Shown here: piece after piece, positions 6,427-30,051 of the stretch | How the letters are laid out: each line of letters begins with the position of its first letter | How positions within the stretch are numbered: position 1 is the stretch's first letter | Assembly (NCBI GenBank): GCA_963788655.1 | Contig: CAWBHS010000056.1 | Location: 1 to 48,260, forward strand | Source of the DNA: an uncultured Verrucomicrobiae bacterium | Lineage (GTDB): Bacteria > Verrucomicrobiota > Verrucomicrobiia > Limisphaerales > JAFGQR01 | Length of the DNA stretch: 48,260 nt | Direction: 5' to 3' | Made by a program: the position numbers and the translations under genes | Notes under the pieces: model-generated | Seen by the model: only the letters and a program-made list of their open reading frames with translations | What the model was told of the DNA's origin: nothing | Databases searched by the model: none

Positions 6427-7629
6427 TTAATTCAGCGCCAGAATATCCAGGGCGCTGGACTGGGTGGGCTGCGGCAGATCCTTTAATCGTTGTTCAGCTT
6501 CTTTGGCCAGGCGCTCGGCCTCGGCGACATGGGGACGCGCGGTGCGCCAGCCCAATTGGGCGTATTCGTAACCGGCCCAAATTAATTGCACCTCCAGTTT
6601 GGCGACTTCGTCCGCCACCGTGTCAAAGGCCGGATGCCGCTTCAGCGACTCGGCAAGTTTCCACAAATCGGGACGGACCATCTTGATCTTTTCCGACAAT
6701 GGCAAATCCGGTCCCGGATTCAGCTCGCCATTTTCCAGCTTTTGAACAATCCGATGCGCCTGCCGTGCGGCCTCCATGACGATACCGCTCCGGTCTTTGG
6801 ATTCATTTTCGGCCCGGGCAAAATCAAGCCAGCGCTGGGCCTTGGCAAAGGCATAACTGCGGATGGGCAGGCCGTGGGCATTCAGCTCGCGCAGGCGTTC
6901 CTGCAAGGCGTCGAGATTGAGGACAGCGGTGGGGTCCGCGCCCGGCGTTGCGGCCGTGCCGGTGAAGGGCTGCGGACGGAAGGGTTTGCGGTGATACTGC
7001 ATACGCTGGCAAGCCGTATCCGCATATTGCTCCGCCTTTTCCAGCGTCGGTTTGGCCACCCGCCACCCGCGATTCTTGTAATCGTAGGCCGCCCAAACCA
7101 ATTGCACTTCCAGAAAGGCAACCGCGACTTCCCCCGCTTGGAAGTTGGGTTGCCGCTTGAGTTCTCGGGCCAACTCCCACAGGTCTGGACGGATGGACGG
7201 CACGAACGGAAACACGACGGTTTCCCGGCGGGGGTCCGACTTCTTGGACTCAAGCTGCCCAATCAGATTGGTCGCCACGGAGAAGGCTGCCGCCACCAGC
7301 GGACCGCGGTCGGTATCGGTTAATTCCGATTTGGAACAGAGCAGCCACTGTTGGGCTTTGGCCAGAAAATACCGATCGTTCGCTGGGTCCGCGACCAGCT
7401 TTTGCAGGCGGACCTGCCATCCATCGTAAGCCTTCAACAAGGCGCGGGCCTGCGATTCATGCAGCGGAGAGTAGGTTTCCGGCGCGGCCCCGGCCCCGGG
7501 CCCTTGAATCAGACTGCCCACCAGGCCCAAGATCACCGCCATCCGCCCACCAAGCCGCCAGGCCGTCCGGCTTTTCGCCGGCGCTGGGCTTAACTGGGTT
7601 GGAAGGTTTACGATCATGGGCTGCTTCAT
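6427..7629 (-). CDS. Exported hypothetical protein with an internally duplicated helical domain
   Basis: Two copies of YxxAKAQxWL...RPDLWxLAxxLKRxPxF...LEVQLxWAxYxY...GWRxA. Its ATG overlaps the upstream gene's TGA (7626-7629). Confidence 0.75.
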   Translation of the reverse strand: MKQPMIVNLPTQLSPAPAKSRTAWRLGGRMAVILGLVGSLIQGPGAGAAPETYSPLHESQARALLKAYDGWQVRLQKLVADPANDRYFLAKAQQWLLCSKSELTDTDRGPLVAAAFSVATNLIGQLESKKSDPRRETVVFPFVPSIRPDLWELARELKRQPNFQAGEVAVAFLEVQLVWAAYDYKNRGWRVAKPTLEKAEQYADTACQRMQYHRKPFRPQPFTGTAATPGADPTAVLNLDALQERLRELNAHGLPIRSYAFAKAQRWLDFARAENESKDRSGIVMEAARQAHRIVQKLENGELNPGPDLPLSEKIKMVRPDLWKLAESLKRHPAFDTVADEVAKLEVQLIWAGYEYAQLGWRTARPHVAEAERLAKEAEQRLKDLPQPTQSSALDILALN

Positions 7630-10600
7630 TCCCGCGAGTTCTTGCTGCGGCCAAACAAGGTTTCATCAAACTTGAACCGGAAGCTGATAAAGAATCCGGG
7701 ATTGGTGTAATTCTGGCCACTTAAATCGTCGTCGTGGAATCCAAAGACATTGAAGCCCGCGGCAATGCGCATGTTGTTCTTGAACGTCCAGCCCACTTCC
7801 GGGCCGAGTCCGAATTGCGCGCTGCGAAAGCCGCCCCCAAACAGCATGCTGCCATTCAGGCCAACGTCCCAACGCTTGGTCAGATCGGTACGTGGCCCGC
7901 AAGGCCACCAAGTGCGCGTCGTAGAAATCGCTGAAACCGTCGGCCGAGTCCCAGGCGAATTTGGAGGCATAATGACCGCTCAGAATCCAGTCGCGCGTTG
8001 GCTGGTAGTTGGCGTGCAAGGAGAAAATATGGACTTGCCGTTCCAAGTCGCCGCGGGGTTGCGTCCCGTCATCCTCAAACTTGTACTGGTACTTCATCAA
8101 GGCATTCCACCGATCGGTGCGCGTCTGCCGGTAGGCCAGCCCGGCCTGGAAACGCGCCTGCGTTTTGCTGCCGCCGGTGGGTCCGTTATTCTGCACGCCA
8201 TAATAGATGGTCTTGCCCAGAAAGGTCCAATCGGTACTGAGTTTGCGCGCCAATCCCAGCGTATTGAGCACGCTGTCACTCGCCGAACTGACCCGCAGTT
8301 CCAATCGCGCCGTGCCTTTCCAGTCCGGATTGCGTGTGTATTCCACCGCGGCGGCGCCGGCGGTGGCTTCATTCTGAATGTCCCCGACGATGGGGTTGAC
8401 GCGTTCGAACGTGGTGTTGAGCCGCAGTCCTTCCGCCAGGGACCAACCATTGCGCAAGCCAACCGCGGCTTCGGCTTCGCGCCCGGAAAAGGCATCCCGT
8501 CCGCGATATTCACTGAACACCGAGCCTTCCTTCATATACTCAGTGTCGAGGCCAACGACGGTGGTGTTTTGCTCCTGGAAGTTATTCAATTCAAAGGGGC
8601 CGCCCAGCGCATTGATGAATTCATGCCGGGCGTAGAGGCGGGTTTTCGGGCCCACCTGCATTTCGCCCCCGACCGCCAACAGACGCTTGTCCGTCTCGAT
8701 CACATCGTTCTCCACCTCGCCATAAACGGAGGCCTGCTTAACGAACGGTACCGGCACGGTAACCTTGGCGCGCGCGCTGTTGACTTCGTTCGGCGTCACC
8801 CCGGCCGGGGTGGCCGTGGTGGGCCCAGCCGGGGCGGCGGTTTCGGTGCTGTGCCGTCCTCCGACTTCGACGCGCACCTTGCCGGGCAAGGTCTGTTCCA
8901 CGGAGAGCGTGCCGCCTTCCCGGTGGCCGTCGTTCGCCGTGCTTTCACTGTAAATGGCCTGGCCCAACAGCCGCGTGTTGGGCGCGAGTCGATGGCTGAT
9001 TTGTGCTCCCGCTTCCCGGCGGCCCGACATAATGCCCGCCGCGTTGTTGCTGAAGGTATTGCCGGCCTCCCCGAAATAGAACCGCGCGTCCGTTTTCTCG
9101 TCCTGGTGGCGCAACTCAATCCGCCCGGCGTCGCCATCGGCCAGCGCCGTGGAACTGTGAGCCACTTCGCCCAAGACATAGGTTTTCTTGGCCAGCTTGA
9201 TGGTGGAGTTGGCGCTGTAGAGGTGGTATTCGGCCAGGGGATTTTCGTCGCGCACCACCGATCCGCCGACTTCGATATGTTCGTTGAGTTTGACTTGTCC
9301 GTCCGCGCCATACACCCAAAATTTGTCTCCGCCTTGCTCCACCTCATACGTCACGCGGATGAACACTGGATTGAGATACTCATCCACACTGGGAAGCGAC
9401 CGACGGAGGAGCAACCGGCCCGTAAACGGCTCAAATTCGTAATCCGTAAATCGGGTCAACGTTTCGCTCTTAATGACAATCGACCGCTGATTGCGATCGC
9501 GGGTGATGATCTCGACTTTTTCGCTGTTGATGATGCCGTCCTTCGCGCTGAACTGATACGGCCCGGAAGTGCCATTGCCGCGCATCTCATCGATTACCTG
9601 GCGGGTGCTGTCCTCACTGGCCCATACGTTCAGGCGCACGTGCTCGTTTTCCAGATGCACCCGCCCACCCGTCAGGCTGCGACTGTAGTTCCCCAGGCTG
9701 CTGGCTTCCGCTTGCGAGGTGGTGACGAAGTCGCCATAAAGTACGTAACACCGCTTCCGGTCCACGCGAACATACAAGCGCCCCGTGCTTTGGGCGTCGA
9801 ATCCTTTGACCGACGAATCACCATACACCGGGTAAAACTCATCCGGTTGGATGTCGCGGAAGAGCCGCTCCTTGGTGTCTTTGTCCGAGTCAAAGCCGAC
9901 CGTCAGCAGGTATTTGCCAAGCACCTTGCCCTTCACAAACAGGGCGGCCCGTCCGCCATATCGATCGGAACCCGAACCGTCGTTCAGGGCAAAGGCCTGG
10001 AGTTCTTCGGCGAAACCATCCTGCGAGCGCGGGGGAAAGGCATCGTTGCCATTGAGGTCGCTGAAATTCACCGTGCCTTCGAGAACCCCCACCGCCAGCA
10101 ACGGCCGCAGTTCGGGGAGAAAATGGAGCACCGCCTCGGCCCCCATCGCACCGCTGCTAACCTGGATGTGTGATTCCCCCGGCTCCAGGGGCGGTGTCAG
10201 GTAAAACTCGGCGTGGCCGCCCTCGATGAATACCTGGGTGGCGGGCGTGCGGGTATCAAAATCTTCGACCTGCCATTCACCCTGACTGGCGCTCAACGTC
10301 AGCGGCAAGCGCGCCGTCACTCGCACACCGGCGCCATCGGTCACTTCCACCACGACTTTGGCCGGGGTCTTGCCGTCTGCCACCGCGCCCTCTTTGGGGA
10401 GAAAGATCCGGATCGATCCCGGTTTGTCGGGAGCGATCAGGTTCACTCCCTCGCGGCCCCGTTCGTTGCCGAACGCATCGATCTGGACCACCTCCACTTC
10501 ATTGTTGCCCGGCTGCAATTCCACCCCGACATATTCCCAAACCTCCAGTCGCTTTTCGGCCAGCGTCGCCCGTTTGCCCAAACGGCTGGCTGACACCTCT

Positions 10601-12486
10601 TGACCGTTGACGCGGAGGACCAACTTGCTCCCTTGCACTCCCTGCACTCGAATGGTGGATTGGGCCATGGGCAGGATGTCGCCGTCCTTGAAATCAACGA
10701 AACCCAAGGTGTTGGTGGCGACTGTTTCCAGTGCAGGCTCCAAGGGCAATTGCGGGCCAAAGACCGGGTTCAGCGGCATGCCGTTGGTGGCCGAGGATGC
10801 GGTATTCGTGCTCGCGGTGACGCGCGGTGTACGACCGGCAGCACCCGGAACCAGGCCAGTGACCAAGCTCGGTCCCGCATTCACCGGATCGCTGATTACC
10901 CCGCTCGCCGGCAGTGAACGCGGATCGTTTCGGGGCACCAGGGCTCCATCCGGCGTCAAACGTCCCTTGATCATCGCGTCAATCTCGGACGCCCGACCCT
11001 CGGCCCGGAGCCGGCGGGCTTTGACTTCCTCAATGACTTCAGGCACCGGATAGCCAATCGTAAAATTGGCTTTGTGGATTTCACCGCGGTTGATATCCAC
11101 AAACCGGGTGCCACCGCTGCCCGCATGCCGCGTGGAGGGGGCGAGTAGCACCGCGCCGGTCGGCAACGTCGTTTCGTCAAGTTTAAGCACATGGGTCTTG
11201 GGCGAGACGCCGTAGAAACTGTATTTGCCTTCGCTGTCGGTAATGACATAGGTGCCATCCTCCATGTAAAGGCGAATGCCGGGAACGCCCAACTCCAGGA
11301 GATCTTGAATCCGGTTTTGATTGGCATCGATGAAGACCTTCCCCAGGACCACGCCCATGTCAGTAAACACGCCGCCTTGTTTTACTTCCAGTTTGACGGT
11401 CGCCCGATTGCTCTGCAACACCCGCGGCTGCGTGCAGGTGGACCAGGCGGTGAATACGCCATTGCCTTTGGTCGTTCCCGGCCCGGCGCGCACCACCAGC
11501 GTCAACGTCACCACGCCATCATTCGGGAGGGCGCCCACCGGAAACACCAGTTGCGGGCCGGCGCCGCCTTCCGGATTCGCGATGGTCACCCCTTCTCGGC
11601 GGGCGGTTCCTTGTTGATACGCAAAACCGGCGGACAGGTTGTTCACGGCCACCACGTCCGCCAGATCGATACCCGTGGCATTGCGGATGCGGATCGTCAG
11701 TTCAACCATGTCGCCAATCTCGACGCTTTGCCGCGACGCGGTGATCTGGGTGAACAACGAGCCCAGTTCGGCCAGCAGGCTGACGCGGTTTTCACTCATC
11801 GCGGCCAAGCCACTCGCCGGCACCGTCGCGGTCAATTGGATCGTCGCCGCCTGTCCGCCCAGTAACGGGGAAGATGGTAGTTCGCCCACGATCACCAAGT
11901 CCAGCGGAGTACCGGGATTGACCGTGAGCGAACCGCCGTTGGCAATCTCGATTTCGCCGGTATCGACCACTCCGTTGCGATTGGGATCCCGGAACAGTCG
12001 GAGATTTGTCAGGTCGTAATCATTGTCGGGACCGTTTGCCGCCTGGAGGGTAACCATGGCTGGCCCCGTTCCCGAATAATCCAGGCGATGAGGCAACGAA
12101 ACCGTTGAGCCCACGGTAGCGGTCAACGACCGTCCGGGGGAAAGGTCCAATTGACCGGCGGGAGGGATGTCCCCCTGGATGATCACGCGCACCGGTTCGG
12201 ACTGCATTCGGACCAGGTTGGTGCCTCCCGGTGCGCCATTGGCCTCCGTGGTGAATTCGACCACCGCCAGGTTGATTATCTCCAAGCCGGTGGCCGGTGG
12301 CGCCGCCCGCGCCGGACAAACGACGGCATAAAGAATGAGTCCAAGGAGGAAGCACTGGCTCCCGACCGCGCGCACGAGCGGAACCAGTGAGAAAGGCAAT
12401 GAAAACGAGAAGCGTCGGCTTGCAGCAAAACAGAAAGCTTGAGCTCCGATCGGCATCTTACGGGCTGACCTTTCGGGTGCCTCCAT
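7626..12486 (-). CDS. Large outer-membrane protein: N-terminal Ig/DUF11-like domains, SdrD-B-like domain, C-terminal beta-barrel (1-nt frameshift at about 7887)
   Basis: Signal peptide, a DUF11-like repeat, GKVFIDANQNRIQD..ELGVPGIRLYMEDG, and a long run of amphipathic beta strands. The C-terminus FFISFRFKFDE continues in the 7626..7970 frame. Confidence 0.85.
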
Positions 12487-12735
12487 GAAACCGCGTCATA
12501 GACGGAAACCTGGCTTCGAAAGATACAGCTCGTTTTTCGAAGTCAGATTCAGGGGCAATGTTGGAATCACCCCGCAACCGCTTGCGGGGGATTCGCCAAT
12601 GCGCGCGCTTCATGGACAAGGTGAATCCGACGTTTAGCCGAGCGGGAGGCAGCGCGACTGAACCACCGGTCGCCAACTGGCCACGTGCCCGCAAGCCAAT
12701 GGCTCTGCGGAGCTTCCACGCTCTTCCAGGTTCAA

Positions 12736-12751
12736 AGCAAAGGATGTGCCC
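12736..12751 (-). promoter_or_regulatory. Putative sigma54 (-24/-12) promoter for the beta-barrel operon
   Basis: The minus strand reads GGGCACATCCTTTGCT (GG-N10-GC, close to TGGCAC-N5-TTGCW), about 250 bp upstream of ATG 12486. Confidence 0.6.
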
Positions 12752-12968: not shown

Positions 12969-15007
12969 CTATGCCGCACAAGCAGTCGGAATGGCCTGGC
13001 TCGAGGGCAATTCCAACGTGAAGGTGGCCCCATGTCCCGGTCCGTCACTATGAACAGATAATTTGCCCCCCATTTCCTTGGAGGCGTTGGCCCCGCTATG
13101 CAGCCCAAAACCATGCCCATGCGGTTTGGTGGTAAATCCATGTTGGAAGACTCGAGTCAGATTCTCCTCCGGAATGCCCACTCCGTTGTCGATGACTTGC
13201 ATCTTCACTGTTTCTTTGCCCTGCCGGGTAATTCTCAGAATCAACCGTGGCTCCTGGGGCTGACCGTCTTGCAAGGCATGTTTGGCGTTGCGAATCAGGT
13301 TGATCAAGATCTGCATGGCTTTGTGCCGATCCACGTCCACCGGCGGCACGTCGTCAAATTCCCGGACCACCGTCACGTTGACCCCTTCCAGCCCGGCGGC
13401 ATTCATCCGCAAGGCATCTTCCATCAACATGGCCGGTGCCACCGATTCAATCACCCCGGACACTTTGGCGTAGGCCTGTTGCATGGAAACGATTTCCTTG
13501 ATGTGGTCCACGTTCTTGCGGAGGGCATCGAGTTCCTCGAACTGGACGGCGTGCTCATTGGCGACATGCTTGGCGAGCTTCGCCACAAAATCCGGCAGTT
13601 GTTTGCCGCGCGGATCTTCGGTGAGGAAGGTGCCGAGGTCGGCGGCATGCTCGGTCAGCAATTCCGCCAGGCGACTGATGCTGGAAACCTTGGAGTTCCG
13701 CAACCGGTCGGCCACCACCGTCGCGGAGACGTTTACGCTGTTGAGCACGTTTCCCACATTGTGTAAAACGCCCGTGGCCACTTCGGCCATGCCCGCCTGA
13801 CGCGACGTTCGCGCAATTGTTTGTTCAGTCCCTCCAATTCCTGGGCCACCCGCTTCCGCTCGGTAATGTCCCGGATAATCGCGCCGTAAAACTGCTGCTG
13901 CTCAACTTGCCAGGCATACAGCGAAACCTCCACGGGCAGTTCCCCATGCTTCTGATTCAAGGCATGCATTTCGATGGTTTCCCCGCCCTGGCTGGAATCG
14001 GTTTGACCTTCGACCCGCTCAATCCCCGCGCGGTAAATCGCGTGATATCGCTCGGGAAACAATTCCACCATGGGTTCGCCGAGAATGTCTCCTTCGTCAT
14101 AGCCAAAGATCAGTACGGCGCCTTTGTTCCAGGAGGTAATCCGCCCTTGCTGGTCAATGGAGATGATCGCGTCGTTGGCCGATTCAGTGAGGGATTGAAA
14201 GCGCTGATCCGCCACCCGGCGTGCCGCTTCCGTGCGCGCCCGCTGTTCAATTTCGCACTGAAGATCCTGGTTCATCTTGTTCAGGGAAGCGGAGTCCGAC
14301 TCGATTTGCCCCAGCATTTGGTTGAATGCCTCGGTCAGCATGCCCACTTCGTCTTTGCCCAACTGCGCGGCGCGCACCGCGTAATTCCGGTCGTGCGCCA
14401 CGACCTGGGCCACTCCCGCCAATTTCAGAATGGGAACGGAAATGAAGCGTTGCAATCGATTGGAAAGGAGGAAACTGACCAGGATCGACCCGAGCAGCAC
14501 CAACCCGGTAATCCCACCGTACAGGCGAAGCAGGTCATGGTGGGCCTGGCGAATATCCGCATCCAGATACAGGGTGCCCAACCGGTCGCCTTCCAGCACG
14601 ACCGGTTGCGCCAGCAGCAACCGGTTTCCTTCCACGCTCAAACCGTCTTGCAAGGCGCGCGACGCAAATACCTCCCGGCGGTTGGCGGGTCCGCGGTGGG
14701 CGAATTCACTGCCGTCCTTCAAATGCAAACTGGCATAGGTGATCTGGGGTTTGGCTTGCAATGAGGCCAGCACGTCCGCCGCCGCCTGACGATCCCGGAA
14801 GGTCAAAGCCCCCAGGCTGTTCGCGGCAATGATTTTCGCCGTGGTTTGCAAATCCTGCACCAGTCCGCGACGAAAATAGTAGTCTTGAAATACGAACAGA
14901 GCGGCTCCGGCGACCAGCAGGACAACCGAGCAGGTCATCACCACGATCAAGTTCAACTTGCGCTGGATGCGCAAATTCAAGACGAAGCGTTTGAGAAGGG
15001 CGATCAC
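12969..15007 (-). CDS. Membrane sensor histidine kinase (CHASE8-like, HAMP, PAS, HisKA, HATPase); frameshift at about 13809
   Basis: Two TM segments, HAMP (DEVGMLTEAFNQML), PAS (DAIISID..GRITSWNKGA..IFGY), H-box GMAEVATGVLHNVGN, and N/G boxes. Confidence 0.88.
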
Positions 15008-15397
15008 GACTTAGTTCACCGCAGCCATTTTCTGGGCGGTCCATAAAGTGAAACGCGCTTGGCGATGCCACCCTATGGCCAAGGCCACTCGTGAGGAACC
15101 TTTGGGAGTATTCCCATTCTTGAAAGGGTATCGCGTGATGGACCACTGCTGACTCATAAAACTCGAATCCAACTTGGTTCCGATTGCTCTGCGGGCGGCA
15201 ACATTTTCCCCTGCGGCTCCGCGCCGATCATTCCCAGTCGGTTCAGAGCAGGAAAAAGGCCCATCATGAAGTTGCTGATCCAAACATTTCCCGCGCGTTG
15301 GGTCGGAGGGCGCGACCATCGGGCGCGCGGCGGGCAACCAACTTGGACGGGCACGGATTGCTCGCACGATTTGCCCGGCGCGCCAATCCTACGTCCG

Positions 15398-17605
15398 TCA
15401 GGCGGCCCACTGACGATCCGGCGGCGCAGGTTCCCGTGCGTCCGCGGCCACCACCTCAATTTGTCCCAACAATTCACGCACCGTGTGCAGCAGTCGTTCA
15501 GGTTTATACGGTTTCTGCAAATAGGCACAGCCCTGGTTCGCGGCAAAGTCCCGGCCCGCCAGTTCCGAATTATAACCGCTGGTGTAGATGAGCTTCACTC
15601 CCGGTTTGCTCTGCTGAAGTTGCTTGCCCAGTTGCAGGCCGCTGATGCCATTTGGCATGACCACATCGGTCACCACGATATCAAAATCCTGGCCGTGCTC
15701 TTTCCAGAGGTTCAAGGCCTGCACGGCATCGCTGGCTTCGACGACCCGATAACCATGCTGCTGCAGCACTTCCCGCTGCATTTCCCGGAGCAACTCTTCA
15801 TCTTCCACCAACAGCACGCGTTCCTGCCCGGTGACATTGCGCAGCAAACGCGTCGGTTCATCCTCCAAAATGAGCGGCTTTTCGGTCTTGGGCAGATACA
15901 CGGAAAAGGTGGAACCCTTGCCCACTTCGCTGCTGACCTCAATCCATCCCGCATGCTGCTTCACAATCCCGAAGGCGGTGGATAATCCGAGACCCGTGCC
16001 TTTGCCCAAGTCTTTGGTCGTATAAAAAGGTTCGAAAATGTGCTCCAGGTTGGCGGGGGCAATACCGCAGCCTTCATCCGCAACACTCAGGCAAACAAAC
16101 TGGCCCGGCCGCGACTGCGGATTCTGGGCGGCGTAGGCCTCATCGATGTCCACCACCCGCGTCCGCACGACCAGTTGGCCGCCTTGCGGCATGGCATCGC
16201 GAGCGTTGACCACCAGGTTCATGATCACTTGTTCCAGGTTGCACTCGTCCGCTTCAATCGCGGGCAAGGTTTCGGCGCATTCGCAATGCAGCGTCACCTG
16301 TTCGCCGATCACCCGGCAGAACAGCGCATGGAGCTGGCGGACGATTTGATTCACGCTCAGCACCCGGGATTGCACCACCTGCTTGGAACTGAACGCCAGC
16401 AATTGGCGGGTTAAATCCGCCGCGCGCTCGGAGGCTCGGTTGACGTGCTTGAGCGAGCTTCGCAAGGGAGCCGCCAAGTCAGCCTGCGCCAGTTGCAAAT
16501 TCACATGGCCCTGGATGATGGTCAGAATGTTGTTAAAGTCATGGGCAATCCCGGCGGCCAATTGTCCCACCGCCTCCATCTTCTGCGATTCCTGGAGGCG
16601 CTTCTCCAGTTGTTCGCGTTCGGAAACGTCTTCCGCGATCACGAGCATATTGGGTTCGCCGCCGAGGTTCAGCAGTTCGGCCGAGAGAAACACACTGCGA
16701 GCCTGGCCGGATTTGCTTTTCAACTGGCACGGCGCATTACGAATGGATCCCAGTTGCTTGAGCCGGCTGGAGATTTTCGCCCCGGGCTTCGGATCCTGCC
16801 AGAGGCCCAGTTCCTCATCCGTGCGTCCAACGATCTCTTCCGGGGGGTATCCCAGCGTTTTGACAAAAGCCTCATTCACATGCAGGTAGCGTTCTTCGCT
16901 GACCGTTTGAATGGCCATCGGAATGGGCGTGGCCCGAAAGGCTTTCGAAAACCGTTCCTGCGATAGCCTCAATTCGGCGTCCACCCGCTCGCGTTCGGCG
17001 ATTTCCTCCTGCAAGCGCGCGTTGGTCGCCTGCAGTTCCTGGGTGCGTTCATTGACCTTCCGGTCTAGTTCCTGCAAGCGGTCTTTGGCCTGCTGGGTGA
17101 GGTGCCATTTGCTCGTCAGGGCATGGGCCAGTTGCAGCACCTCCACGTTGTCAAAGGGCTTCTTCAGGATCACCAGGCTGTCCGTGTTGCCCAGGTTGCC
17201 CACGTTTTGGATGATGTCGTTCCAGGAGTAGTCCGAGTAGGCCGTGCAGATGACAACCTGAAGTTCGGGATACACTTGCCAGATCCGGGAGATGGTTTCG
17301 ATGCCGTCCCAGCCGGGCGGCATGCGCACGTCCACAAAGGCCATCGCGTACGACCGGCCTTCCTGCTGGGCCTGCTCCACCCGGGCCAAGCCTTCCTGGC
17401 CTTGGAACGCCGAATCGACATCGAACTGGACCGTGCTCTCGGTTCCCGCGTCCGGCTTCGCGCCAAACAGCAGCGCCTCTGCTTCGCTCAACTCGTCGCT
17501 GGCCTGCTGGGCGGGCAGTAGTATTTTGCGAAAATCCTCGTGAATGGACGGATTGTCGTCAATCACCAGGATACGGCTGGAGTTGGATGAAAGGCGGTCA
17601 CTCAT
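15398..17605 (-). CDS. Cytoplasmic hybrid kinase REC-PAS-HisKA-HATPase-REC
   Basis: RILVIDDN...FVDVRMPPGWDG, QKMEAVGQLAAGIAHDFNN, NLVVNARDAM, GKGTGLGL, and a C-terminal VLLVEDE...TDVVMP. Confidence 0.93.
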   Translation of the reverse strand: MSDRLSSNSSRILVIDDNPSIHEDFRKILLPAQQASDELSEAEALLFGAKPDAGTESTVQFDVDSAFQGQEGLARVEQAQQEGRSYAMAFVDVRMPPGWDGIETISRIWQVYPELQVVICTAYSDYSWNDIIQNVGNLGNTDSLVILKKPFDNVEVLQLAHALTSKWHLTQQAKDRLQELDRKVNERTQELQATNARLQEEIAERERVDAELRLSQERFSKAFRATPIPMAIQTVSEERYLHVNEAFVKTLGYPPEEIVGRTDEELGLWQDPKPGAKISSRLKQLGSIRNAPCQLKSKSGQARSVFLSAELLNLGGEPNMLVIAEDVSEREQLEKRLQESQKMEAVGQLAAGIAHDFNNILTIIQGHVNLQLAQADLAAPLRSSLKHVNRASERAADLTRQLLAFSSKQVVQSRVLSVNQIVRQLHALFCRVIGEQVTLHCECAETLPAIEADECNLEQVIMNLVVNARDAMPQGGQLVVRTRVVDIDEAYAAQNPQSRPGQFVCLSVADEGCGIAPANLEHIFEPFYTTKDLGKGTGLGLSTAFGIVKQHAGWIEVSSEVGKGSTFSVYLPKTEKPLILEDEPTRLLRNVTGQERVLLVEDEELLREMQREVLQQHGYRVVEASDAVQALNLWKEHGQDFDIVVTDVVMPNGISGLQLGKQLQQSKPGVKLIYTSGYNSELAGRDFAANQGCAYLQKPYKPERLLHTVRELLGQIEVVAADAREPAPPDRQWAA

Positions 17606-18094
17606 GGGCGGGGCAAGGCGCAACCTGTTGGTTGGAATCCTGAGCGCAATCCCAACGCGAGGCGTGGATTTGTTATCGGCGGTATCGCCGGTGGTTCACC
17701 TGCCGGCGCAAGTTCATCCGCCCGCCGGTTGACCGTGCGGGGCTCTCGACTGCTAATCTGGCTGTTCGGTTGTTCCATTCCGTTCTGTTCGCAGTACACC
17801 TTGCATAGGTTATCGGCGGTTGCCATGGCCGCTAAACCTGAATCCCCCAATCCAAAGGCCAAAAACACGCCGCAGATCTGGCAAGCACCCCGTCTGGGCC
17901 GGGATGGCCCGCCAAGCCATCACCGCCCGTAAAGCGAGCGACACGATTCGCCACCCCCGGCGACTCCGGGCACTTGCGCCGCGCTGTACGTGCCGCGGTC
18001 GGCCCAGCGGACTGGCCCTGCCACAATTACGCATCTCGGTCTTCGGCCTGTGGATTTCACCCCAAAGCTCTGGTATTCCCACCTTTCCTGCCGC

Positions 18095-18251: not shown

Positions 18252-18791
18252 ATGAAGGCAATCCAGTGCGTGGAATTCAACCGAATCAATCTTCCCCCGT
18301 GGCGCGCCGCCGCCCTCGGCCTCCTGCTGCTTGGCAGCTTGAGTTGGGTGGCTGCGGCGGCGAACAACGACCTGGCCATCTCCCTCCAGGCGCGCAAGGT
18401 GATTGCCCAGACCAACGGTCGCGAACAACTGCAACCCGCCGAACGCGCCTTCCCTGGTGAAGTTATCCAGTACGACGCCCGGTATGCCAATCAAAGCGGC
18501 CGGCCGCTGCGCCAGATCCAACCCACGCTGCCAATCCCGGCCGGTATGACTTACCTAAAGGACTCCGCCAAACCCGCCCCGGTCAAAGCCAGCCTGGATG
18601 GCAAGACCTTTGAAGCCATTCCGCTGCACCGGCAGGTGCAATTGCCCGACGGCAAAGTGGAACTGCACGAAGTGCCCGCCACCGAATATCGCGCGTTGCG
18701 GTGGTATATCAGCGAACTGGCGCCCGGCAGCCAGACCAACCTGGTGGCCCGCACGCGGCTGATTCCTTTAACCACGGCTTCCCGCCGGTGA
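18252..18791 (+). CDS. Small exported DUF11-like single-domain protein (candidate assembly chaperone)
   Basis: Signal peptide, then PGEVIQY...N...TLPIPAGMTY...LRWYISELAPG. GGAG RBS. Confidence 0.8.
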   Translation: MKAIQCVEFNRINLPPWRAAALGLLLLGSLSWVAAAANNDLAISLQARKVIAQTNGREQLQPAERAFPGEVIQYDARYANQSGRPLRQIQPTLPIPAGMTYLKDSAKPAPVKASLDGKTFEAIPLHRQVQLPDGKVELHEVPATEYRALRWYISELAPGSQTNLVARTRLIPLTTASRR

Positions 18792-18837
18792 ATCCGTGCC
18801 AGCCACCATGCTTCCAGTTCCCTCAACGATTTGACCC

Positions 18838-21516
18838 ATGCAACTTCGATCCCCCCTCATGATAACGCCAACGCCTGTTCCCCGAACCACATTACAGCGC
18901 CCGGGTGCCGTGCTGCGTCGCACCGGCTGGCTATGGTCCCTGACGCTTAGTGCCCTGTTCTTGCCGTCCGGCCCGAGGCCGGCCTTGGCCGATGCTCCAC
19001 CAGCGGGCACACAGATCGGCAATCAGGCCAGCGCCAGCTACACCGACTCCAGCAACACCGAACGCACCGCCACGTCGAACGTCGCCATCACCATCGTCCA
19101 GCAAGTGGCCAGCTTCACGCTCACCACGGATGGTCAGGCCAAATACGCGGCGGCGGGGAGTCAGGTTCTGTATCCGCACACCTTGATCAACACGGGCAAT
19201 GGTTCGGATACGTTCGATCTGAGTGCGGCCAACAGCTCGGGCAGCGACGATTTCGACCTGAATTCCCTGGCGCTCTACGCCGACGCCAATGGGGACGGTT
19301 TGCCGGATAACACCACCGCCGTGACCAGCACCGGTCCCTTGCCACCGGGCGGCGTGTTCAAATTCGTCGTGCTCGGCATCGTGCCGGGCAGCGAAACCGC
19401 CGGGCGGGCGGCGGCCATCATCGTCACCGCCAGCGGCACGACCACCGCCACGCCCGCCGCGGCGCAGAATAACACGGACACCACGACCGTCACCGCCGAC
19501 GCTGTGGTCAACGTGAGCGCGGCCATGGATTCCAGTGCCGGCGCGCCCGGCAGCGGCCCCTACACCATCACGCTGACGTACAACAACACCGGCAACAATT
19601 CGGCCACCAATTTGACCCTGCTGGATGTCCTCCCCGCCGGCTTCACTTACGTCACCAACAGCGCCCGTTGGAGCACCCTCGGCAGCACCCCCCTGACCGA
19701 TGCCACCGGCGACAATCAGGGTGCCGCGCCAGACACGATCGATTACGATTTCGGTGACACAGTTGCGGGCCGCATGAAGGCAATCATTTCTCGGGTTCAG
19801 CCGGGCCAGTCCGGCACGCTGACGTTCCAGGTCACCGTGGGGTCAGCCCAGCCCGCCGGTGTGATCAACAACACGCCCACTTACAGCTACGATCCCGGCA
19901 CGGGCGCCACCGTCGGACCGCTGAACGCCAACACGCTTCAATTCACCGTCACCCAAAGCAACGGCGTGGACCTCACTGGCCAGACGATTGCCAGCGCCAC
20001 CCAGGGCAGCACGGTTTCATTTACGAATGTCCTGCAAAACACCGGCAACGGCACCGACACGTTTGACCTCACGGTCAGCAACACTTCCTTCCCCGCCGGA
20101 ACCACGTTTACGCTTTACCAGAGCGACAGCAACACCCCGCTGGTGGACAGCTCCGGCAACGGCATCCCGGATTCCGGACCGATGGTCACCAGTCAAACCA
20201 AGAACATCATCCTCAAGGCCGTGCTACCCAACGGCGCCTCGGGTGCGGGCGTGAATTACACGGTGCGCTTAACGGCCACCTCCATCACCAGTTCGGGCAC
20301 CACGACGAACGTCAACGACGTGCTGACCAGCGTCACCGGCAACACCGTGGACTTGAGCAACGGCCCCAGCGGCGGTGCCGGCGCCGGCCCGGAAGTTTCG
20401 CCCGTGGTCATCAATACCTCCAATCCCAACACGACCACTCGCTTCACTCTTTACGCCACCAACACCAGCGGCGTGGCGGACAGCTACAACCTCACCACCA
20501 GCACCAACGCCAGTTTTGCTTCGCTCGATTTGCCCAGCGGCTGGAGCGTGGTGTTCCGCGACGCCAACGAAGCCATCATCACTTCCTCGGGCGTGCTGGC
20601 CGCCGGCACGAACAAACTGATCTATGCCGACGTAACCGTCGCGCCCGGCACGGCGCCGGGCACCAACAGTATTTATTTCCGCGTCGCGTCGTCCACCTCC
20701 GGCGCCTCCGACCGGTTGCACGACGCCGTGGCCGTCAACACCGTCCGCAATCTTTCCCTGGCGCCCAACAACACCGGCCAGGTGTTCCCCAACGGATTCG
20801 TCGTGTTCAGCCACCTCCTTATCAACAACGGGAATGTTCTCGAAGGCGACGGCACCCTCAGCAGCGTCAATTTAAGTCTCGCGGACTCCCTGTCGGGCTG
20901 GAGTTCGGTGCTCTATTACGATCTCAACAGCAACGGTGTGGTGGACGGCGGGGACACGGCCGTCACCAATCTGGCGTTTGTCAGCGCCGGCAGCGCTGGC
21001 GTCTCCCCGGGCGAATCGATTCGTCTGCTGGTTAAAGTGTATGCCCCGCCGGGCGCCGCCCAGGGCACCATCAACGCCACGACGATTACCGCCACCACGG
21101 CGAACGGCACCCACACCGTCGCCGCGCCTGCCGCTGCCGTCGCCACGGATAATTCGACCGTCATTGCCGGCGACCTCCAGTTGCTCAAAGAACAGGCGCT
21201 GGACGCCGACCTGAACGGCACGCCGGACACGGCCTACACCACCACGGACATCACCACCGGCGCGACGCCGGGCAAAATGATCCGCTACCGGATCACGGTC
21301 ACTAATCGCGGCACTGCCCCGGCCACGGCGGTGAAAGTGTACGACACCACGCCGGCTTACACGATCTATACGATAACCGGTCCCGCCTCGACCACGGTGG
21401 GTTCCGTATCCAGTGCGCCTGCCGACGGAGCCACCGGCGCGTTGGAATTTGACATTGGCACCCTCAATCCTGGCGCTTCGGCCGTCATCACCTTTGGCGT
21501 TGCCATTGCCCAGTAA
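18838..21516 (+). CDS. Secreted DUF11/Ig-repeat protein (candidate fibre shaft subunit)
   Basis: Signal peptide, T/S/N/G-rich Ig repeats (NTGNGSDTFDL, NTGNGTDTFDL), N-terminal AGTQIGNQASASY, and a C-terminal DUF11 ending TFGVAIAQ*. Confidence 0.88.
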   Translation: MQLRSPLMITPTPVPRTTLQRPGAVLRRTGWLWSLTLSALFLPSGPRPALADAPPAGTQIGNQASASYTDSSNTERTATSNVAITIVQQVASFTLTTDGQAKYAAAGSQVLYPHTLINTGNGSDTFDLSAANSSGSDDFDLNSLALYADANGDGLPDNTTAVTSTGPLPPGGVFKFVVLGIVPGSETAGRAAAIIVTASGTTTATPAAAQNNTDTTTVTADAVVNVSAAMDSSAGAPGSGPYTITLTYNNTGNNSATNLTLLDVLPAGFTYVTNSARWSTLGSTPLTDATGDNQGAAPDTIDYDFGDTVAGRMKAIISRVQPGQSGTLTFQVTVGSAQPAGVINNTPTYSYDPGTGATVGPLNANTLQFTVTQSNGVDLTGQTIASATQGSTVSFTNVLQNTGNGTDTFDLTVSNTSFPAGTTFTLYQSDSNTPLVDSSGNGIPDSGPMVTSQTKNIILKAVLPNGASGAGVNYTVRLTATSITSSGTTTNVNDVLTSVTGNTVDLSNGPSGGAGAGPEVSPVVINTSNPNTTTRFTLYATNTSGVADSYNLTTSTNASFASLDLPSGWSVVFRDANEAIITSSGVLAAGTNKLIYADVTVAPGTAPGTNSIYFRVASSTSGASDRLHDAVAVNTVRNLSLAPNNTGQVFPNGFVVFSHLLINNGNVLEGDGTLSSVNLSLADSLSGWSSVLYYDLNSNGVVDGGDTAVTNLAFVSAGSAGVSPGESIRLLVKVYAPPGAAQGTINATTITATTANGTHTVAAPAAAVATDNSTVIAGDLQLLKEQALDADLNGTPDTAYTTTDITTGATPGKMIRYRITVTNRGTAPATAVKVYDTTPAYTIYTITGPASTTVGSVSSAPADGATGALEFDIGTLNPGASAVITFGVAIAQ

Positions 21517-21826
21517 ATCACCGAGCCAACGGGCCGGGCGGTGCGCTCAGCGGATCGTCTTGGGTGCCATTGCCCTGTCTTAGAAAACCATGCCGCATGG
21601 ATGCATCAGTGGGGATCAGCGGGACGCCCGACGAAGCGTCCGTGCTGAACCAGTTAAGTCGCTTCCCCTCAACGTGGCAAAGACGGATTCCACTCCGTCC
21701 CTGACTTTTCCTGAACGCGTTCACTCATCCAGAACCGAGATCAGGGAGATCCGCACGCGCCCAAATTTACCCCGCGAACGTTCCCGGGAGGCGGTAAGCG
21801 CTGCGGAAGAAGTGGGACGCAGAGGA

Positions 21827-24800: not shown

Positions 24801-27328
24801 GCCAATGTGGACCTGCGGTTGACCAAGAGCGTGGACAATCCCACGCCGCTGTTGGACAGCAACGTCGTCTTCACGGTCAGCGTCGAGAATGTCGGCACGA
24901 ATACCGCCACCGCGGCCAACGTGCGCGTCACTGAGGCCATCCCGGGCGGCCTCTCCTATGTGGCCGACACTCCCTCGCAAGGAGTTTATGATCCGAGCGT
25001 TGGCTTTTGGTATGTAGGGAAATCAGTCCGGGGGCCACCGCCACGCTGCTGCTGACCGCCCGGGCCAACCAGGCCGCGCAAATCACCAACTTCGTGGTCA
25101 TCAGCGGATTGACCCAGACCGACACCAACGCGGCCAATGACAACGCCGATTCTTCCGTCAACGTCCAGTCCGCCGATCTCGCGCTGGGCCTGTCGGCGGA
25201 TACGTTGGTGCCCAACGTGCGGTCCAACGTCACCTTCACGATCACGCTCACCAACCTCGGCCCCAGCGCGGTCAGCAACATCACCGTCAGCGACGTGCTG
25301 CCGGAAAACGTGGAATACGTCTCCCACACTGCCGGCCAGGGCAGCTACGCGAGCGGTACCGGCCTTTGGAGCGTGGGCAACCTCACCAGCAATGCCACCG
25401 CCACTCTTACCCTTACGGCCGCCATGCTCGACTGGGGTTGGCACACCAACACCGCGCAGGTCACCGGGGCCACAGTGGGAGATCCGAACGCTGCCAACAG
25501 CACCGCCAGTCTCGGCGTCGAGGGCCAGTTGGTGGACCTGGATCCGGGCAAGTCGGTGGATAACGAACGTCCCCTCGGCCTGGGTAGCAACCTGGTGTTC
25601 ACCATTGTCGTGACCAATCGCGGTCCCAGCACTGCCACCGGGGTGGAACTTACCGACCTGTTGCCCACCGGCCTGGGCTATAAAACCCATACCCCGTCGC
25701 AAGGCACCTACGACGATACGACCGGTAAATGGACCGTGGGCACACTGGCCAGCAACGCCGTCGCTTCGCTCTCGCTCACCACCACGAACTCCGCGCCGGG
25801 CAAATTTACCAACACGCTTTCCATCACTGCCCTATCCCAGTCCATCACCAACACCGCCGACGACACCCCCAGCGTCATCATCTACAGTGGCGGTGAAGCT
25901 GACTTGTACCTCACCAAGACGGTGGATGACGACAATCCGGAATCCGGCCAAAAGGTCACCTTCACCATCAAGTTGGACAACGAAGGCCCCGATCCCGCCA
26001 CGGGCGTGACGATCCGGGATCTACTGCCGGCGGGATTGACCTACTCGGATCATTACGCCCCCAGCCCTACAACCTACAATCCCACCACGGGCGCCTGGAC
26101 AGTAAGTTCCATCGCCAACGGGCAAAGCCTCTCACTCATCCTCAAGGCCTTGGTCACCGGCAGCGGTCAACTCGAGAACACCGCCGAGATCCTTGCCTCG
26201 AATGCCGCCGATCCCGACCCCATCGGCAACACGGCCAGCGTCCACCTCAGTGTCATCACCATAAACTCCGTTTCCGGCCGGGTCTTTCTCGACACCGGCA
26301 GTAGTGGCGGTACGGCCAATGACGGTGTCATGAACGGTGGCGAAACCGGCCTGGCGGGCGTGACCGTGAAGCTCACTGACAATGCCGGCGCGACGATTTA
26401 TGCCACGGCTACCACCGGCGGCGGCGGCAATTATGTCCTGAACATTCCGTCCACGCTCACGAATTCGGTCACCTTGAAAGTGGTGGAGGTCACCCCGCCC
26501 AGTCACGTTTCCACCGGTGCCCAATTGGGAAATACCGGGGGCAGTTACCAACGCGACTCCGACACAGTTACCTTCACCTTCGTGCCCGGCACGACTTATA
26601 CGGGCGTCAATTTTGGCGACGTGCCTGCCAATGCCTTCGCGCCCGACGGCCAGCAAGCGGCATTGCCGGGCAGTTTCGTGGTGTTCGCGCATACCTACAC
26701 TGCCGGCAGCGCGGGCACGGTGACGTTCACCACCACCAGCCAGTCGTCGCCCAGCCTGCCGGGGTGGACCCAGGTGCTCTTCCGCGATGCCAATGGCAAT
26801 AGCCAACTGGATACCGGGGAGGCAGTGATCAGCGCCCCGATCGCTGTGACCGCCGGCCAAAAAGTAAACCTCCTCGTCAAGGAGTTCATCCCGGTGAACG
26901 CTCCGCTCAATGCGCAGGATCTGATTACTGTGACCGCCACCTTGGCATACACCGATGCCAACCCGGCGTTGGACAATGTGCTGACCCGCACCGACCTGGC
27001 GACCGCCGGCACTCCGACCACCGCCGGGTTGACGCTGGTCAAAGCGGTGGACAAGGATTCCGCGCTGCCGGGCGAAACCATCACTTACACGATCACCTAT
27101 TTGAACAATGGCGTCGATGTGCTCCGCAACGTGATCATCTACGATCAAACCCCGGCGTTCACGGTATTCGTCAGCGCCGGCACCGGCGCGTTTCCCAACA
27201 ACCTCACCGCGGTGGACCTGACTGCGCCCGCCGCGGATGCCTCCGGCGCCCTGAAATGGGTCTTCACCGGCACGCTGGCCCCTAGCGGCACCGGCACCGT
27301 GAGCTACAGTGTGAAGGTGGCGCAATGA
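21827..27328 (+). CDS. Large secreted DUF11-repeat adhesin (about 1830 aa; two compensating frameshifts at about 24702 and 25018)
   Basis: Signal peptide (LLLLPPTARA), a ~380-aa N-terminal head, eight complete DUF11 repeats (xDLxxxK/M...D.LP...N.A...DP...N), an SdrD-B-like domain and a terminal DUF11. ORFs 21590.., 24807.. and 25007.. join. Confidence 0.85.
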
Positions 27329-30032: not shown

Positions 30033-30051
30033 TGAAATCCATTCAAAAGAG

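Follow-up and report, generated by a model that had tools for sequence, protein, structure and literature searches.

Split CLIPPER domains and conserved hairpins in a verrucomicrobial locus: a candidate covalently linked surface fiber

The locus and its recurrent gene order

Why should two secreted proteins encoded side by side both end in a DUF11 domain that is cut short, and why should a conserved hairpin stand at the mature N-terminus of one of them and of a third protein with a C-terminal outer-membrane module? The question is posed by a gene cluster of an uncultured Verrucomicrobiae bacterium, lying in a 48,260-nucleotide stretch of DNA, the whole of which is referred to here as the window. 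An original prediction, made from the letters of the window, held that the hairpin supplies the strands missing from the cut domain and that tip, shaft and barrel proteins are linked in this way into a fiber.

The 892-aa shaft subunit (18838-21516, forward strand; ORF and Pfam) consists of a signal peptide, a donor hairpin, approximately five Ig-like modules (a count that is an interpretation of Pfam matches), and a C-terminal truncated DUF11/CLIPPER acceptor domain. The acceptor (aa 776-892; 21163..21513, forward) carries Lys784 (codon 21187) and Asp836 (codon 21343). That this domain is truncated, as predicted, is borne out by Pfam DUF11, which in the last 98 residues matches only 11-83 of its 114 model positions, and by a profile of shaft C-termini, which occupies only columns 2-96 of the 143 in the complete domain (hhalign, 99.7%, E 7e-27); against the six complete adhesin repeats alone, columns 19-83 of 123 match (95.5%). 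At the other end of the chain, the hairpin (aa 54-92; 18997..19113, forward) directly follows an A-x-A type signal-peptide end, with Asn62 (codon at 19021) being residue nine past the predicted cleavage.

The gene of the neighboring tip adhesin (~1834 aa; 21827-27328, forward) shows apparent frameshifts at two places, near 24700 and near 25015. Behind the signal peptide of the protein lie a 474-aa head, for which Pfam gives no known family, as well as eight complete DUF11 repeats, one SdrD_B domain, and one Ig-like module, and the chain closes with a truncated acceptor domain (27023..27325, forward; Lys codon 27041, Asp codon 27143) that ends before the Asn strand. Here, too, the predicted truncation is seen: the last 102 residues span DUF11 positions 2-84 of 114, whereas an internal repeat covers positions 1-113, and the complete internal repeats contain Lys, Asp, and Asn all together. 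No donor hairpin is found in the adhesin, as a hairpin model built from shaft homologues matches none of its pieces.

The barrel protein (~1640 aa; reverse strand, 12486 to about 7626), whose gene has a single apparent frameshift near 7890, is built of a signal peptide, a donor hairpin, an Ig-like rod (DUF11, SdrD_B, Big_1-like), and a C-terminal outer-membrane module of ~830 aa. Its hairpin (aa 63-104; 12175..12300, reverse), which carries Asn72, again directly follows an A-x-A type signal-peptide end. The C-terminal module is steady in size (793-873 aa in 49 loci) and has no Pfam, NCBIfam, or PDB sequence match, with 0 PDB chains at E<=10 by profile; its atlas neighbors are unnamed “outer membrane protein” clusters. 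At the level of sequence families, the barrel proteins give no usher match, and no Pfam or NCBIfam autotransporter match is seen in four barrel proteins or in the isolated module. The barrel gene of the window lies on the strand opposite to the shaft, 6 kb away, and the interval holds two sensor kinase genes (12969..17623, reverse; Pfam). One encodes a CHASE8-HAMP-PAS kinase and has an apparent frameshift near 13790; the other encodes a hybrid kinase/receiver. These are possible regulators of the system; of 79 loci, 19 have a response regulator close to the operon and 12 a kinase.

These 79 loci were kept, in addition to the window, from the matches listed in a scan over the genomes of 185,579 species, in which at least 450 matching stretches were confirmed. 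The gene order sIg, shaft, barrel, acceptor-only tip recurs in at least seven phylum-level groups (phyla as given in database records), and the only families common to at least 19 of the 79 loci are shaft/tip, sIg, barrel, and response regulator. In the usual operon the barrel gene comes directly after the shaft gene, and it lies downstream of it in 61/65 loci; tip, shaft, and barrel genes are single-copy per locus. An alphaproteobacterial plasmid features the same order at 31% identity, and the 79 loci include cultured Polaromonas, Ramlibacter, Collimonas, and Oleiharenicola strains. A survey of gene neighborhoods, put forward as a check with the original prediction, finds conserved co-occurrence, together with the donor and acceptor ends, both of which are present in 70/70 complete shaft ORFs of the loci.

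A near-universal companion is sIg, a small secreted single-domain protein (179 aa and DUF11-like in the window; 18252..18791, forward), encoded directly upstream of the shaft in 73/74 loci with sufficient flank and present as a family in 76 of the 79 loci plus the window. The window copy has no Pfam family, and sIg resembles DUF11 weakly (hhalign 47%, E 2e-4), in a match that goes no further than column 102 of 143. The sIg model matches some shaft C-terminal domains almost full length. The sIg consensus contains no conserved Lys or Asp, and the chain ends ~10 aa past the last strand; sIg is a candidate decoy acceptor or chaperone.

A 400-aa protein (6427-7629, reverse), by its sequence secreted and helical with two internal repeats, had been proposed as a chaperone, and this assignment is not supported. 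It belongs to no Pfam or NCBIfam family and to no chaperone family; it lies directly 3' of the barrel gene in only 9/42 loci with at least 3 kb beyond the barrel (its family is found in 10 of the 79 loci plus the window), and an OmpA domain of the kind that binds the cell wall occurs in 5/10 relatives tested. Leads from the atlas are weak (0.85), and relatives match the TpgA model, and other models, below the cutoff. With half of these relatives featuring a Pal/OmpA-type cell-wall domain, the likeness is to a TpgA-type tether; the protein is an optional accessory, a periplasmic or cell-wall tether being likelier than a chaperone.

The hairpin, the cut domain, and the isopeptide triad

The C-terminal cut is a family trait. 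Shaft homologues number 1478 at E<=1e-5 among 8000 scored, and 2454 cluster representatives at E<=0.001; of a set of 267, 29 were removed for length, leaving 238 full-length homologues at 34-70% identity. In 237/238 of these, the chain stops within six residues of the same alignment column, and the N-terminal hairpin, which is the best-conserved stretch of the shaft, is kept as well. The invariant chemistry is divided between these ends, with the Lys (236/238) and Asp (237/238) in the acceptor and the Asn (237/238) in the hairpin; the terminal domains of shaft and adhesin hold Lys and Asp only. Neither this split triad nor the sIg gene, the frameshifts, and the usual barrel-after-shaft order figure in the original prediction. 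The crystal structure of a CLIPPER domain, PDB 9IFR, is described as showing a Lys715-Asn806 bond with Asp748 nearby (PMC12617251), and the profile aligns the shaft Lys, Asp, and Asn with the corresponding motifs of that structure. Family membership is supported by scores against PF01345 (cutoff 24.6 bits) of 44.8 bits for the shaft, 200 and 325 for the adhesin pieces, and 27.8 for the barrel; the isolated terminal domains score 39.9 and 41.6 bits.

Is the hairpin, then, what the cut domain lacks? Direct similarity does not speak for it: Pfam finds nothing at E<=10 in the isolated N-terminal hairpin peptides, and the hairpin profiles have no significant match to the adhesin's own repeat ends (4.7% and 0.3%). 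Hairpin and acceptor columns covary weakly, their pairs making up 21% of the top 100 as against 14% expected. That the hairpin represents the missing strands is argued instead by the split triad and by natural fusions, so that this part of the original prediction stands on other evidence than resemblance to adhesin repeats.

The fusions are of two kinds. Four proteins (P0391, P0241, P0392, which is the ORF of locus L020, and P0242) contain 2 to 5 shaft units head to tail, and at all 12 junctions, which are of the same form, the hairpin stands directly behind the cut domain. In seven further full-length proteins, a shaft is joined to a barrel, with the barrel hairpin straight after the shaft's cut domain. 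No signal peptide occurs at the junctions of either kind. The predicted shaft-shaft and shaft-barrel pairings are therefore shown in single-chain form, and, because four proteins chain 2-5 units, a shaft hairpin is compatible with a shaft acceptor and rods of several units are employed. In 3/3 junctions of L020, Pfam DUF11 extends to position 100 of 114, and in a profile into which fusion junctions were taken the shaft hairpin falls on columns 100-143 (96.2%). When complete repeats and fusion junctions are aligned together, the Asn is the sole invariant column. The acceptor Lys is lost in 2/8 shaft-barrel fusions versus 2/238 split shafts (Fisher p 0.005); to judge from these sequences, the constraint on this residue is relaxed once shaft and barrel are fused.

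The roles assigned to the remaining two proteins likewise agree with the wider families. Barrel homologues number 358 at E<=1e-5, and the hairpin model matches 109/119 of those examined at E<=10, with the Asn kept in 95/103 measurable cases and replaced by Ser in 7/103, consistent with a donor-only protein. A model derived from shafts matches 36/61 barrel N-termini at E<1e-2 and does not by itself detect the barrel hairpin of the window. The profile of the barrel hairpins matches that of the shaft hairpins (99.0%, E 2.5e-18), partly by construction, since all barrel rows except the window copy were chosen with the shaft model. The adhesin, in turn, has 27 acceptor-only tip analogues with varied heads in other loci, in keeping with its predicted role as acceptor only; such tips are found in 25/42 loci with room beyond the barrel, and 12 further loci have a large ORF cut by the locus end. 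Including the window adhesin, the acceptor Lys and Asp are each present in 27/28 tips, the tip of L054 having neither. This tip and the Ser-bearing barrel hairpins indicate that the predicted bond is not universal.

From these comparisons, we regard it as very probable that hairpin and cut domain are halves of one domain. That the halves join in trans is likely, if a little less so, and a covalent Lys-Asn bond would probably form between them.

A proposed fiber and its alternatives

The reading that we favor, and consider reasonably likely on the sequence evidence, is that the locus specifies a base-anchored surface fiber of tip, one or more shaft units, and barrel, formed from split CLIPPER domains that hairpins complement in trans and that are probably locked by Lys-Asn bonds. 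The sequences show that tip and shaft each end in the predicted strands 1-7 of a CLIPPER domain, a fold defined as a nine-strand CnaA-like beta sandwich, with the Lys and the catalytic Asp retained; the Asn-bearing hairpins at the mature N-termini of shaft and barrel, which in natural fusions occupy the place of the missing strands, would provide predicted strands 8 and 9. In the envelope, the open domain of the tip would receive a shaft hairpin, shaft acceptors would take up the hairpins of further shafts, and the last acceptor would be filled by the barrel hairpin; as the barrel has no acceptor of its own, its docking would end growth and tie the fiber to the outer membrane. Each completed domain would make a Lys-Asn isopeptide bond across two chains, and the fiber would thereby become covalent without a sortase. 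All N-termini would be directed away from the cell, with growth at the base as in chaperone-usher pili. The barrel protein is probably the anchor; that it should also serve as the export pore is a doubtful extension.

The machinery of other fibers was not found: no sortase, usher, or T1SS family, as originally noted, and no PapD-like chaperone family is seen in the window proteins scanned or in the conserved locus genes. Neither a sortase nor an LPXTG motif was found, the shaft ending in VAIAQ and both shaft and adhesin stopping right after the last strand. PapD-like chaperones give no Pfam or NCBIfam hit among the scanned proteins of the window and are not among the shared families of the 79 loci, and the families scanned do not reveal how tip or shaft would be exported. 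A bolder and quite tentative proposal would make this a new class of two-membrane pilus, self-ligating, free of sortase and chaperone-usher, and using a natural “tag and catcher,” in which the 830-aa module would be both channel for tip and shaft and covalent base, and sIg would serve as a decoy acceptor, keeping hairpins reversibly bound in the periplasm on their way to the barrel.

The fiber may also be shorter than the favored reading supposes. Tip, shaft adaptor, and barrel could stand in a 1:1:1 ratio as a three-piece split adhesin, with the shaft not adding to itself in the cell; the shaft is already long (892 aa, ~six modules), and the three genes are single-copy in each locus. This is nonetheless unlikely, given that every complete shaft ORF has both ends and that four natural proteins chain shaft units through the same junction. 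We lean, by a small margin, toward more than one shaft per fiber.

Another reading gives the hairpin the main role of a tag for sorting or export that the barrel would recognize, comparable to the TPS domain in two-partner secretion, with the short C-terminal domains being stable alone. Such a tag would suit a best-conserved stretch at the mature N-terminus of both exported proteins, with the barrel gene adjacent, but it leaves unexplained why the three invariant residues are an isopeptide triad split between the ends, why hairpins occur inside chains at fusion junctions, and why the barrel itself has one; we consider it improbable as the main role, though tag and linkage could coexist. Closure in cis, in which the shaft hairpin would fold into its own C-terminal domain to give a closed monomer, is somewhat less probable again: donor and acceptor are on the same chain, and single-chain predictors are described as often giving closed forms of donor-strand subunits such as TafA (PMC11821415), yet the same operons hold tips with only an acceptor and barrels with only a hairpin, the fusions link the acceptor of unit n to the hairpin of unit n+1 and not to its own, and the ends are separated by ~680 residues of Ig-like modules. 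Finally, the adhesin and barrel frameshifts may be sequencing errors or decay, but that the truncated ends themselves are products of pseudogenes or assembly errors in this contig is a negligible prospect despite four apparent frameshifts in ~20 kb (barrel, adhesin twice, kinase), as the ends are conserved across 238 homologues and 79 loci in many phyla, and the frameshift in an unrelated kinase gene points to indel errors in the assembly.

Known fibers and the meaning of the locus

How does the proposed fiber compare with known ones? Sortase pili of Gram-positive bacteria are likewise covalent fibers with subunits for tip, shaft, and base, built from CnaA/CnaB-type Ig domains in tandem, whereas here the link is predicted to be self-catalyzed in a reconstituted domain and an outer-membrane barrel would take the place of the cell wall as base. 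In isopeptag/pilin-C, SpyTag/SpyCatcher, and SnoopTag/SnoopCatcher, a strand with a reactive residue has been cut from an isopeptide domain and religates in trans; these pairs are laboratory constructs, while the split proposed here would be natural, directional, and used for assembly. The type V pilus of Bacteroidia employs lipoprotein precursors, protease maturation, and C-terminal donor strands, whereas the present signal peptides have A-x-A ends without a lipobox Cys and the donor is N-terminal. Classical autotransporters share with the barrel protein an N-terminal rod and a C-terminal outer-membrane module; the type Va barrel has 12 strands, and the module here, in which no such barrel family is detected, is at ~830 aa far larger.

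In chaperone-usher pili (type 1, P), an incomplete Ig-like fold is described as being made whole by an N-terminal stretch that extends from the next subunit (PMC11821415). A donor-less tip adhesin, a growth-ending last subunit, and base growth on an outer-membrane protein would be common to both, but here no PapD-type chaperone or usher family is detected, the donor is a two-strand hairpin and not one strand, only the last of ~six domains is incomplete, the terminator is fused to a membrane barrel, and a covalent lock is predicted. For the donor-strand pilus of Enterococcus faecalis (Elr/WxL), an invariant attachment module on tips of variable payload and a base subunit that terminates assembly are reported (10.64898/2026.10.17.759780); as that source describes it, this system differs in its WxL fold, membrane chaperone, sortase anchoring, and restriction to Bacillota.

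Donor-strand exchange and covalent linkage have been described or proposed together elsewhere. Donor-strand complementation with proposed covalent links between subunits, for which no enzyme is known, is described for the archaeal thread (Saci_0406; PMC9715654), where the bond is given as joining Asp24, through its N-terminal amino group, with Asn57 in subunit n+2, not as Lys-Asn in a CnaA-like domain; the thread lacks an outer membrane and a barrel anchor and is unrelated in sequence to the locus proteins. In BsaA fibers of Clostridium perfringens (TasA family), an N-terminal segment is described as entering the neighbor's sheet by “exchange and lock,” and an Asn-Glu-Lys triad split over two chains yields an isopeptide bond, as supported by mutants (10.1101/2024.11.04.621531). 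BsaA differs in fold and family, in being a Gram-positive matrix fiber without barrel anchor or tip adhesin, and in its catalytic Glu, which is Asp here. The likeness of both systems to the locus is one of mechanism only, as Pfam gives only DUF11-type and related Ig families and no membership in the TasA/BsaA or archaeal thread families.

A relative by family is the CLIPPER domain of 9IFR, which belongs to the Pfam family seen here and has its Lys-Asp-Asn motifs at matching positions. CLIPPER domains are described as stalks of fibrillar adhesins in Gram-negative bacteria (PMC12617251), in which the triad lies within one chain and stabilizes one domain, whereas here it is split over chain ends. 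The available part of that text describes no split or intermolecular form, the word “truncated” occurring in it 0 times, and no description of such a split-domain fiber system was found in the literature searched.

If the favored reading is correct, this would be a widespread and unstudied way of building surface fibers in Gram-negative and related bacteria, and it would show a split isopeptide domain at work in nature, serving assembly that is directional and irreversible, a principle that is otherwise known from engineered protein glues and two unrelated fiber families. Many proteins labeled only “DUF11,” “NEW3,” or “carboxypeptidase-like regulatory domain” would gain a concrete role, a large outer-membrane barrel family without known relatives would be brought to view, and the donor/acceptor pairs would be candidate orthogonal ligation tools. 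The cultured carriers in Polaromonas, Ramlibacter, Collimonas, and Oleiharenicola make the system testable.

The putative fibre genes and their divided domains

The putative fibre genes of the window are flanked by ordinary metabolic genes, and the closest relatives come from Verrucomicrobiota. On the forward strand, a secreted 179-aa protein (the small Ig protein, 18252-18791), absent from the list of the original prediction, precedes the 892-aa shaft (18838-21516) and the adhesin, or tip, of ~1834 aa (21827-27328), the last apparently frameshifted twice, near 24700 and near 25015 (24695-24705 and 25010-25020). The reverse strand carries a secreted helical protein of 400 aa (6427-7629), the barrel protein of ~1640 aa (12486 to ~7626), with one apparent frameshift near 7890 (7885-7895), and two sensor kinase genes (12969-17623), one of which is frameshifted as well (13780-13800). 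Because this unrelated kinase gene is also affected, and because the frames are open on both sides, the four apparent frameshifts in ~20 kb are taken as putative indel errors, which look more like faults of the assembly than like decay.

A scan for promoters and terminators did no better than on shuffled sequence, and no riboswitch was found near the operon with Rfam; a match to the group II intron family RF00029 (1796-1861, +; 42.2 bits, gathering score 40) lies far from it. Elsewhere in the window, a secreted 644-aa protein with PATR repeats (29956-31890, +) has a C-terminus resembling a PEP-CTERM sorting signal and is a further surface protein, with no relation to the fibre genes. Bacterial TSP3 and FG-GAP repeats mark a protein of 1065 aa (43480-46677, +) as likely yet another surface protein, one that binds calcium.

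Both the shaft and the adhesin end, as the original prediction held, in a shortened DUF11 domain, which covers positions 11-83 of the 114 in the Pfam model at the shaft end and 2-84 at the adhesin end, as against 1-113 for a complete adhesin repeat. A profile of 39 shaft C-termini aligns with columns 2-96 only of the 143 in a complete-domain profile (99.7%), and with columns 19-83 of 123 when six adhesin repeats alone are used (95.5%). The accompanying claim of a two-strand hairpin directly behind the signal peptide also holds: a conserved hairpin occupies aa 54-92 of the shaft and aa 63-104 of the barrel protein, and the hairpin model matches no piece of the adhesin. That this hairpin represents the very strands missing from the cut domain is a claim that has survived on different grounds. 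Its by-eye similarity to the adhesin repeats is not statistically demonstrable, since the hairpin profiles find no hhalign match in the six adhesin repeats alone (4.7% and 0.3%) and the bare hairpin peptides retrieve nothing from Pfam at E<=10; a repeat model built from the adhesin only does not detect the hairpins either. The proposed link between hairpin and cut domain rests on natural fusions and on the isopeptide triad described below. Against a profile that includes the fusion junctions, the hairpin profiles align with columns 100-143 (96.2% and 91.7%). As a control, the shaft's own complete internal DUF11 domain was used, and there the hairpin model re-found a hairpin in just 12 of 71 ORFs. 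Covariation between the hairpin and the rest of the shaft, measured as mutual information, is weak.

DUF11 has recently been renamed CLIPPER, and crystallography has shown that the domain is crossed by an isopeptide bond between Lys and Asn of one molecule, with Asp as the catalytic residue, these residues being Lys715 (first strand), Asp748 and Asn806 in the nine-strand sandwich of PDB 9IFR (PMC12617251). Their counterparts here line up with the 9IFR motifs when complete repeats and fusion junctions are combined in a profile (E 9e-4), the Asp falling, by our own count, one position off the published number; the Asn is the sole invariant column in the alignment of those repeats and junctions. 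In the shaft, Lys and Asp belong to the C-terminal end, and the Asn comes nine residues after the start of the mature chain. With Lys and Asp in the cut domain and Asn in the hairpin, the triad is therefore split between the chain ends, which is chemistry that the original prediction overlooked. Among 238 full-length shaft homologues (840-1000 aa, 29 of 267 sequences having been dropped by length), the hairpin Asn is conserved in 237, the terminal-domain Lys in 236 and the Asp in 237; the chain ends at the identical column in 214 and at most six residues away in 237. Identity to the window shaft is 34-70% across the 149 rows of alignment A1.

Most homologues in the alignment of shaft acceptor (cut) domains, A7, have two Cys in the loop that connects the first two strands (consensus NCDG and PGAC), which suggests a disulfide; the acceptor domain of the window's shaft has neither.

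Natural fusions and the barrel protein

Four proteins (P0391, P0241, P0392 and P0242) carry two to five shaft units per chain, and at each of their 12 shaft-shaft junctions, 11 located by models and 1 by eye, a hairpin comes immediately after the cut domain and no signal peptide intervenes. At all three junctions of P0392, the Pfam DUF11 match extends to position 100 of 114. Fusions of a whole shaft to a barrel protein, which came to light only in a search for longer proteins, comprise seven of full length (3120-3192 aa) plus a single one that is cut at 1568 aa, and place a barrel-type hairpin directly behind the shaft's cut domain; no such junction occurs among 119 barrel homologues. The Lys is lost in two of the eight shaft-barrel fusions as compared with two of 238 split shafts (p 0.005, on small numbers), which fits stronger selection on the bond where the halves reside on separate chains. 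P0408, considered as a tip-shaft fusion, was rejected because it is an ordinary surface protein whose end is LPXTG-like. In the locus of P0392 (L020 4066-18409, Nitrospirota), a small Ig gene and a split shaft are followed by this 3437-aa protein, which consists of four fused shaft units and finishes in DUF7933 repeats; the stretch examined contains no barrel gene.

The hairpin model matches 109 of the 119 barrel homologues (P0122-P0240) at E<=10, 87 of them at E<1e-2, and the position of the Asn, measurable in 103, is occupied by Asn in 95, Ser in 7 and Gly in 1. Hairpins of the Ser type, which often have an Asn five residues later, may be a shifted or bond-less variant. In the 61 barrel ORFs of the surveyed loci, the model matches 36 and a motif adds 13. 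The barrel protein's internal DUF11 domain extends to model position 97-103 and therefore has no need of the N-terminal hairpin. At the C-terminus is a module of constant length (793-873 aa across 49 loci). It belongs to no Pfam or NCBIfam family, and neither sequence nor profile comparison finds it a relative in the PDB; its atlas neighbours are outer-membrane protein clusters, all unnamed. A crude scan detects 36 amphipathic beta segments in 831 aa and a final strand typical of outer-membrane proteins; the amphipathic segments suggest, though not decisively, that the module is a barrel.

Distribution and gene order

When one genome per species was scanned with a pattern, at least 604 stretches were returned; confirmation succeeded for at least 450, and 79 loci were retained. 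Grouped by our reading of the record titles, these belong to Betaproteobacteria (25), Verrucomicrobiota (21), Gamma- or unclassified Proteobacteria (13), Eisenbacteria (8), Abditibacteriota (3), Nitrospirota (2), Zetaproteobacteria (1) and Desulfuromonadales (1), with five of unclear group. The putative fibre system is conserved, and broader than the window alone indicates. In the common order, the small Ig protein is followed by the shaft, the barrel and another large protein, third of its kind. The small Ig gene lies immediately upstream of the shaft in 73 of 74 loci with sufficient flank, the barrel immediately downstream in 61 of 65, and both ends, hairpin and cut domain, are present in all 70 complete shaft ORFs. 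The four loci without a called barrel have a barrel-like ORF under the cutoff (L001), a truncated shaft (L003), the fused multi-shaft protein (L020) or a hairpin-bearing ORF cut by the locus end (L055).

Past the barrel, in 42 loci with at least 3 kb there, our rules call an acceptor-only protein in 25, a relative of the 400-aa protein first in 9 and neither in 8; in 12 of the 17 loci lacking an acceptor-only call, a large secreted ORF comes next and is cut by the locus end. Taking 27 acceptor-only proteins together with the window adhesin, Lys and Asp are each present in 27 of 28. The protein that has neither (L054 12785-14728, Abditibacterium) would be a variant with a non-covalent joint. 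The heads of these proteins differ, showing beta-helix, SpaA_3, DUF11 arrays or no family in the 17 of 27 scanned with Pfam. For 10 of the 17, it is the terminal DUF11 stretch that is listed, and its match runs no further than model position 81-87. The window adhesin has a head of 474 aa (21827-23248, +) that belongs to no Pfam family and is seen in no other locus; in the PDB, its aa 393-471 weakly match phage decoration proteins (E 0.006).

No further widely shared family emerged when the locus ORFs were clustered all against all; less common are a response regulator (in 19 loci), a kinase (in 12) and the 400-aa protein (in 10), along with antisense shadow ORFs. Plasmid pDY25-D of Pacificitalea manganoxidans has the same gene layout, with Asn, Lys and Asp conserved at 31% identity; the annotation of its genes goes no further than hypothetical, 'NEW3 domain-containing' and 'carboxypeptidase-like regulatory domain-containing'. 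A gene of the CsgG/HfaB family (L080 1080-2606, -) lies ~8 kb upstream of its fibre operon. Sinorhizobium meliloti Ak57 was rejected as a model carrier, the copy on its pSymB being divergent, frameshifted and devoid of the barrel module: a frameshifted shaft homologue is followed by a hairpin-bearing ORF lacking that module (L081 8223-16000), and these ORFs are missing from the gene table distributed with the record.

The chaperone role once assigned to the 400-aa protein is not borne out, as the protein is optional in the loci and 5 of 10 relatives tested have a C-terminal OmpA/Pal-type domain; a cell-wall tether would fit better. The atlas yields leads for it only at 0.85. The small Ig protein is near-universal and DUF11-like; neither Lys nor Asp is conserved in it, and the chain stops shortly past its last strand. 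Some shaft acceptor domains align with its model over almost the full length, and it has no PDB relative and, among 408 proteins, no fusion partner. An attractive idea, purely inferential, is that it would serve as a reversible decoy acceptor for hairpins.

Proposed assembly and known fibres

Comparison of homologues shows, at the level of sequence, that the two chain ends are conserved halves with a split triad, adjoining in natural fusions, and that genes for orphan donors, with a hairpin only, occur together with genes for orphan acceptors. In the proposed assembly, the hairpin of one chain would insert in trans into the cut domain of another, and a self-catalysed Lys-Asn bond would then join the chains. 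The fibre would run from tip through shaft(s) to barrel and grow at its base, with the barrel protein as its anchor. Its chaperone label aside, the donor/acceptor fibre of the original prediction is supported in its core by strong comparative evidence, which the split triad sharpens.

In the openly accessible full-text literature, no description of a split DUF11/CLIPPER domain or of this operon was found. The CLIPPER paper does not use the word 'truncated' and applies 'intermolecular' to other systems only (PMC12617251), and 300,000 characters of a 2026 review contain no 'DUF11', 'CLIPPER' or 'Verrucomicrobi'. Chaperone-usher pili share the assembly logic, whereas here there is no chaperone or usher family. 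An 'exchange and lock' mechanism is described for BsaA of Clostridium perfringens (10.1101/2024.11.04.621531) and for archaeal threads (PMC9715654), which are alike in mechanism but unrelated in fold to the proteins considered here. The proposed fibre would be a variant among the donor-strand fibres that have a covalent lock, a kind already known.
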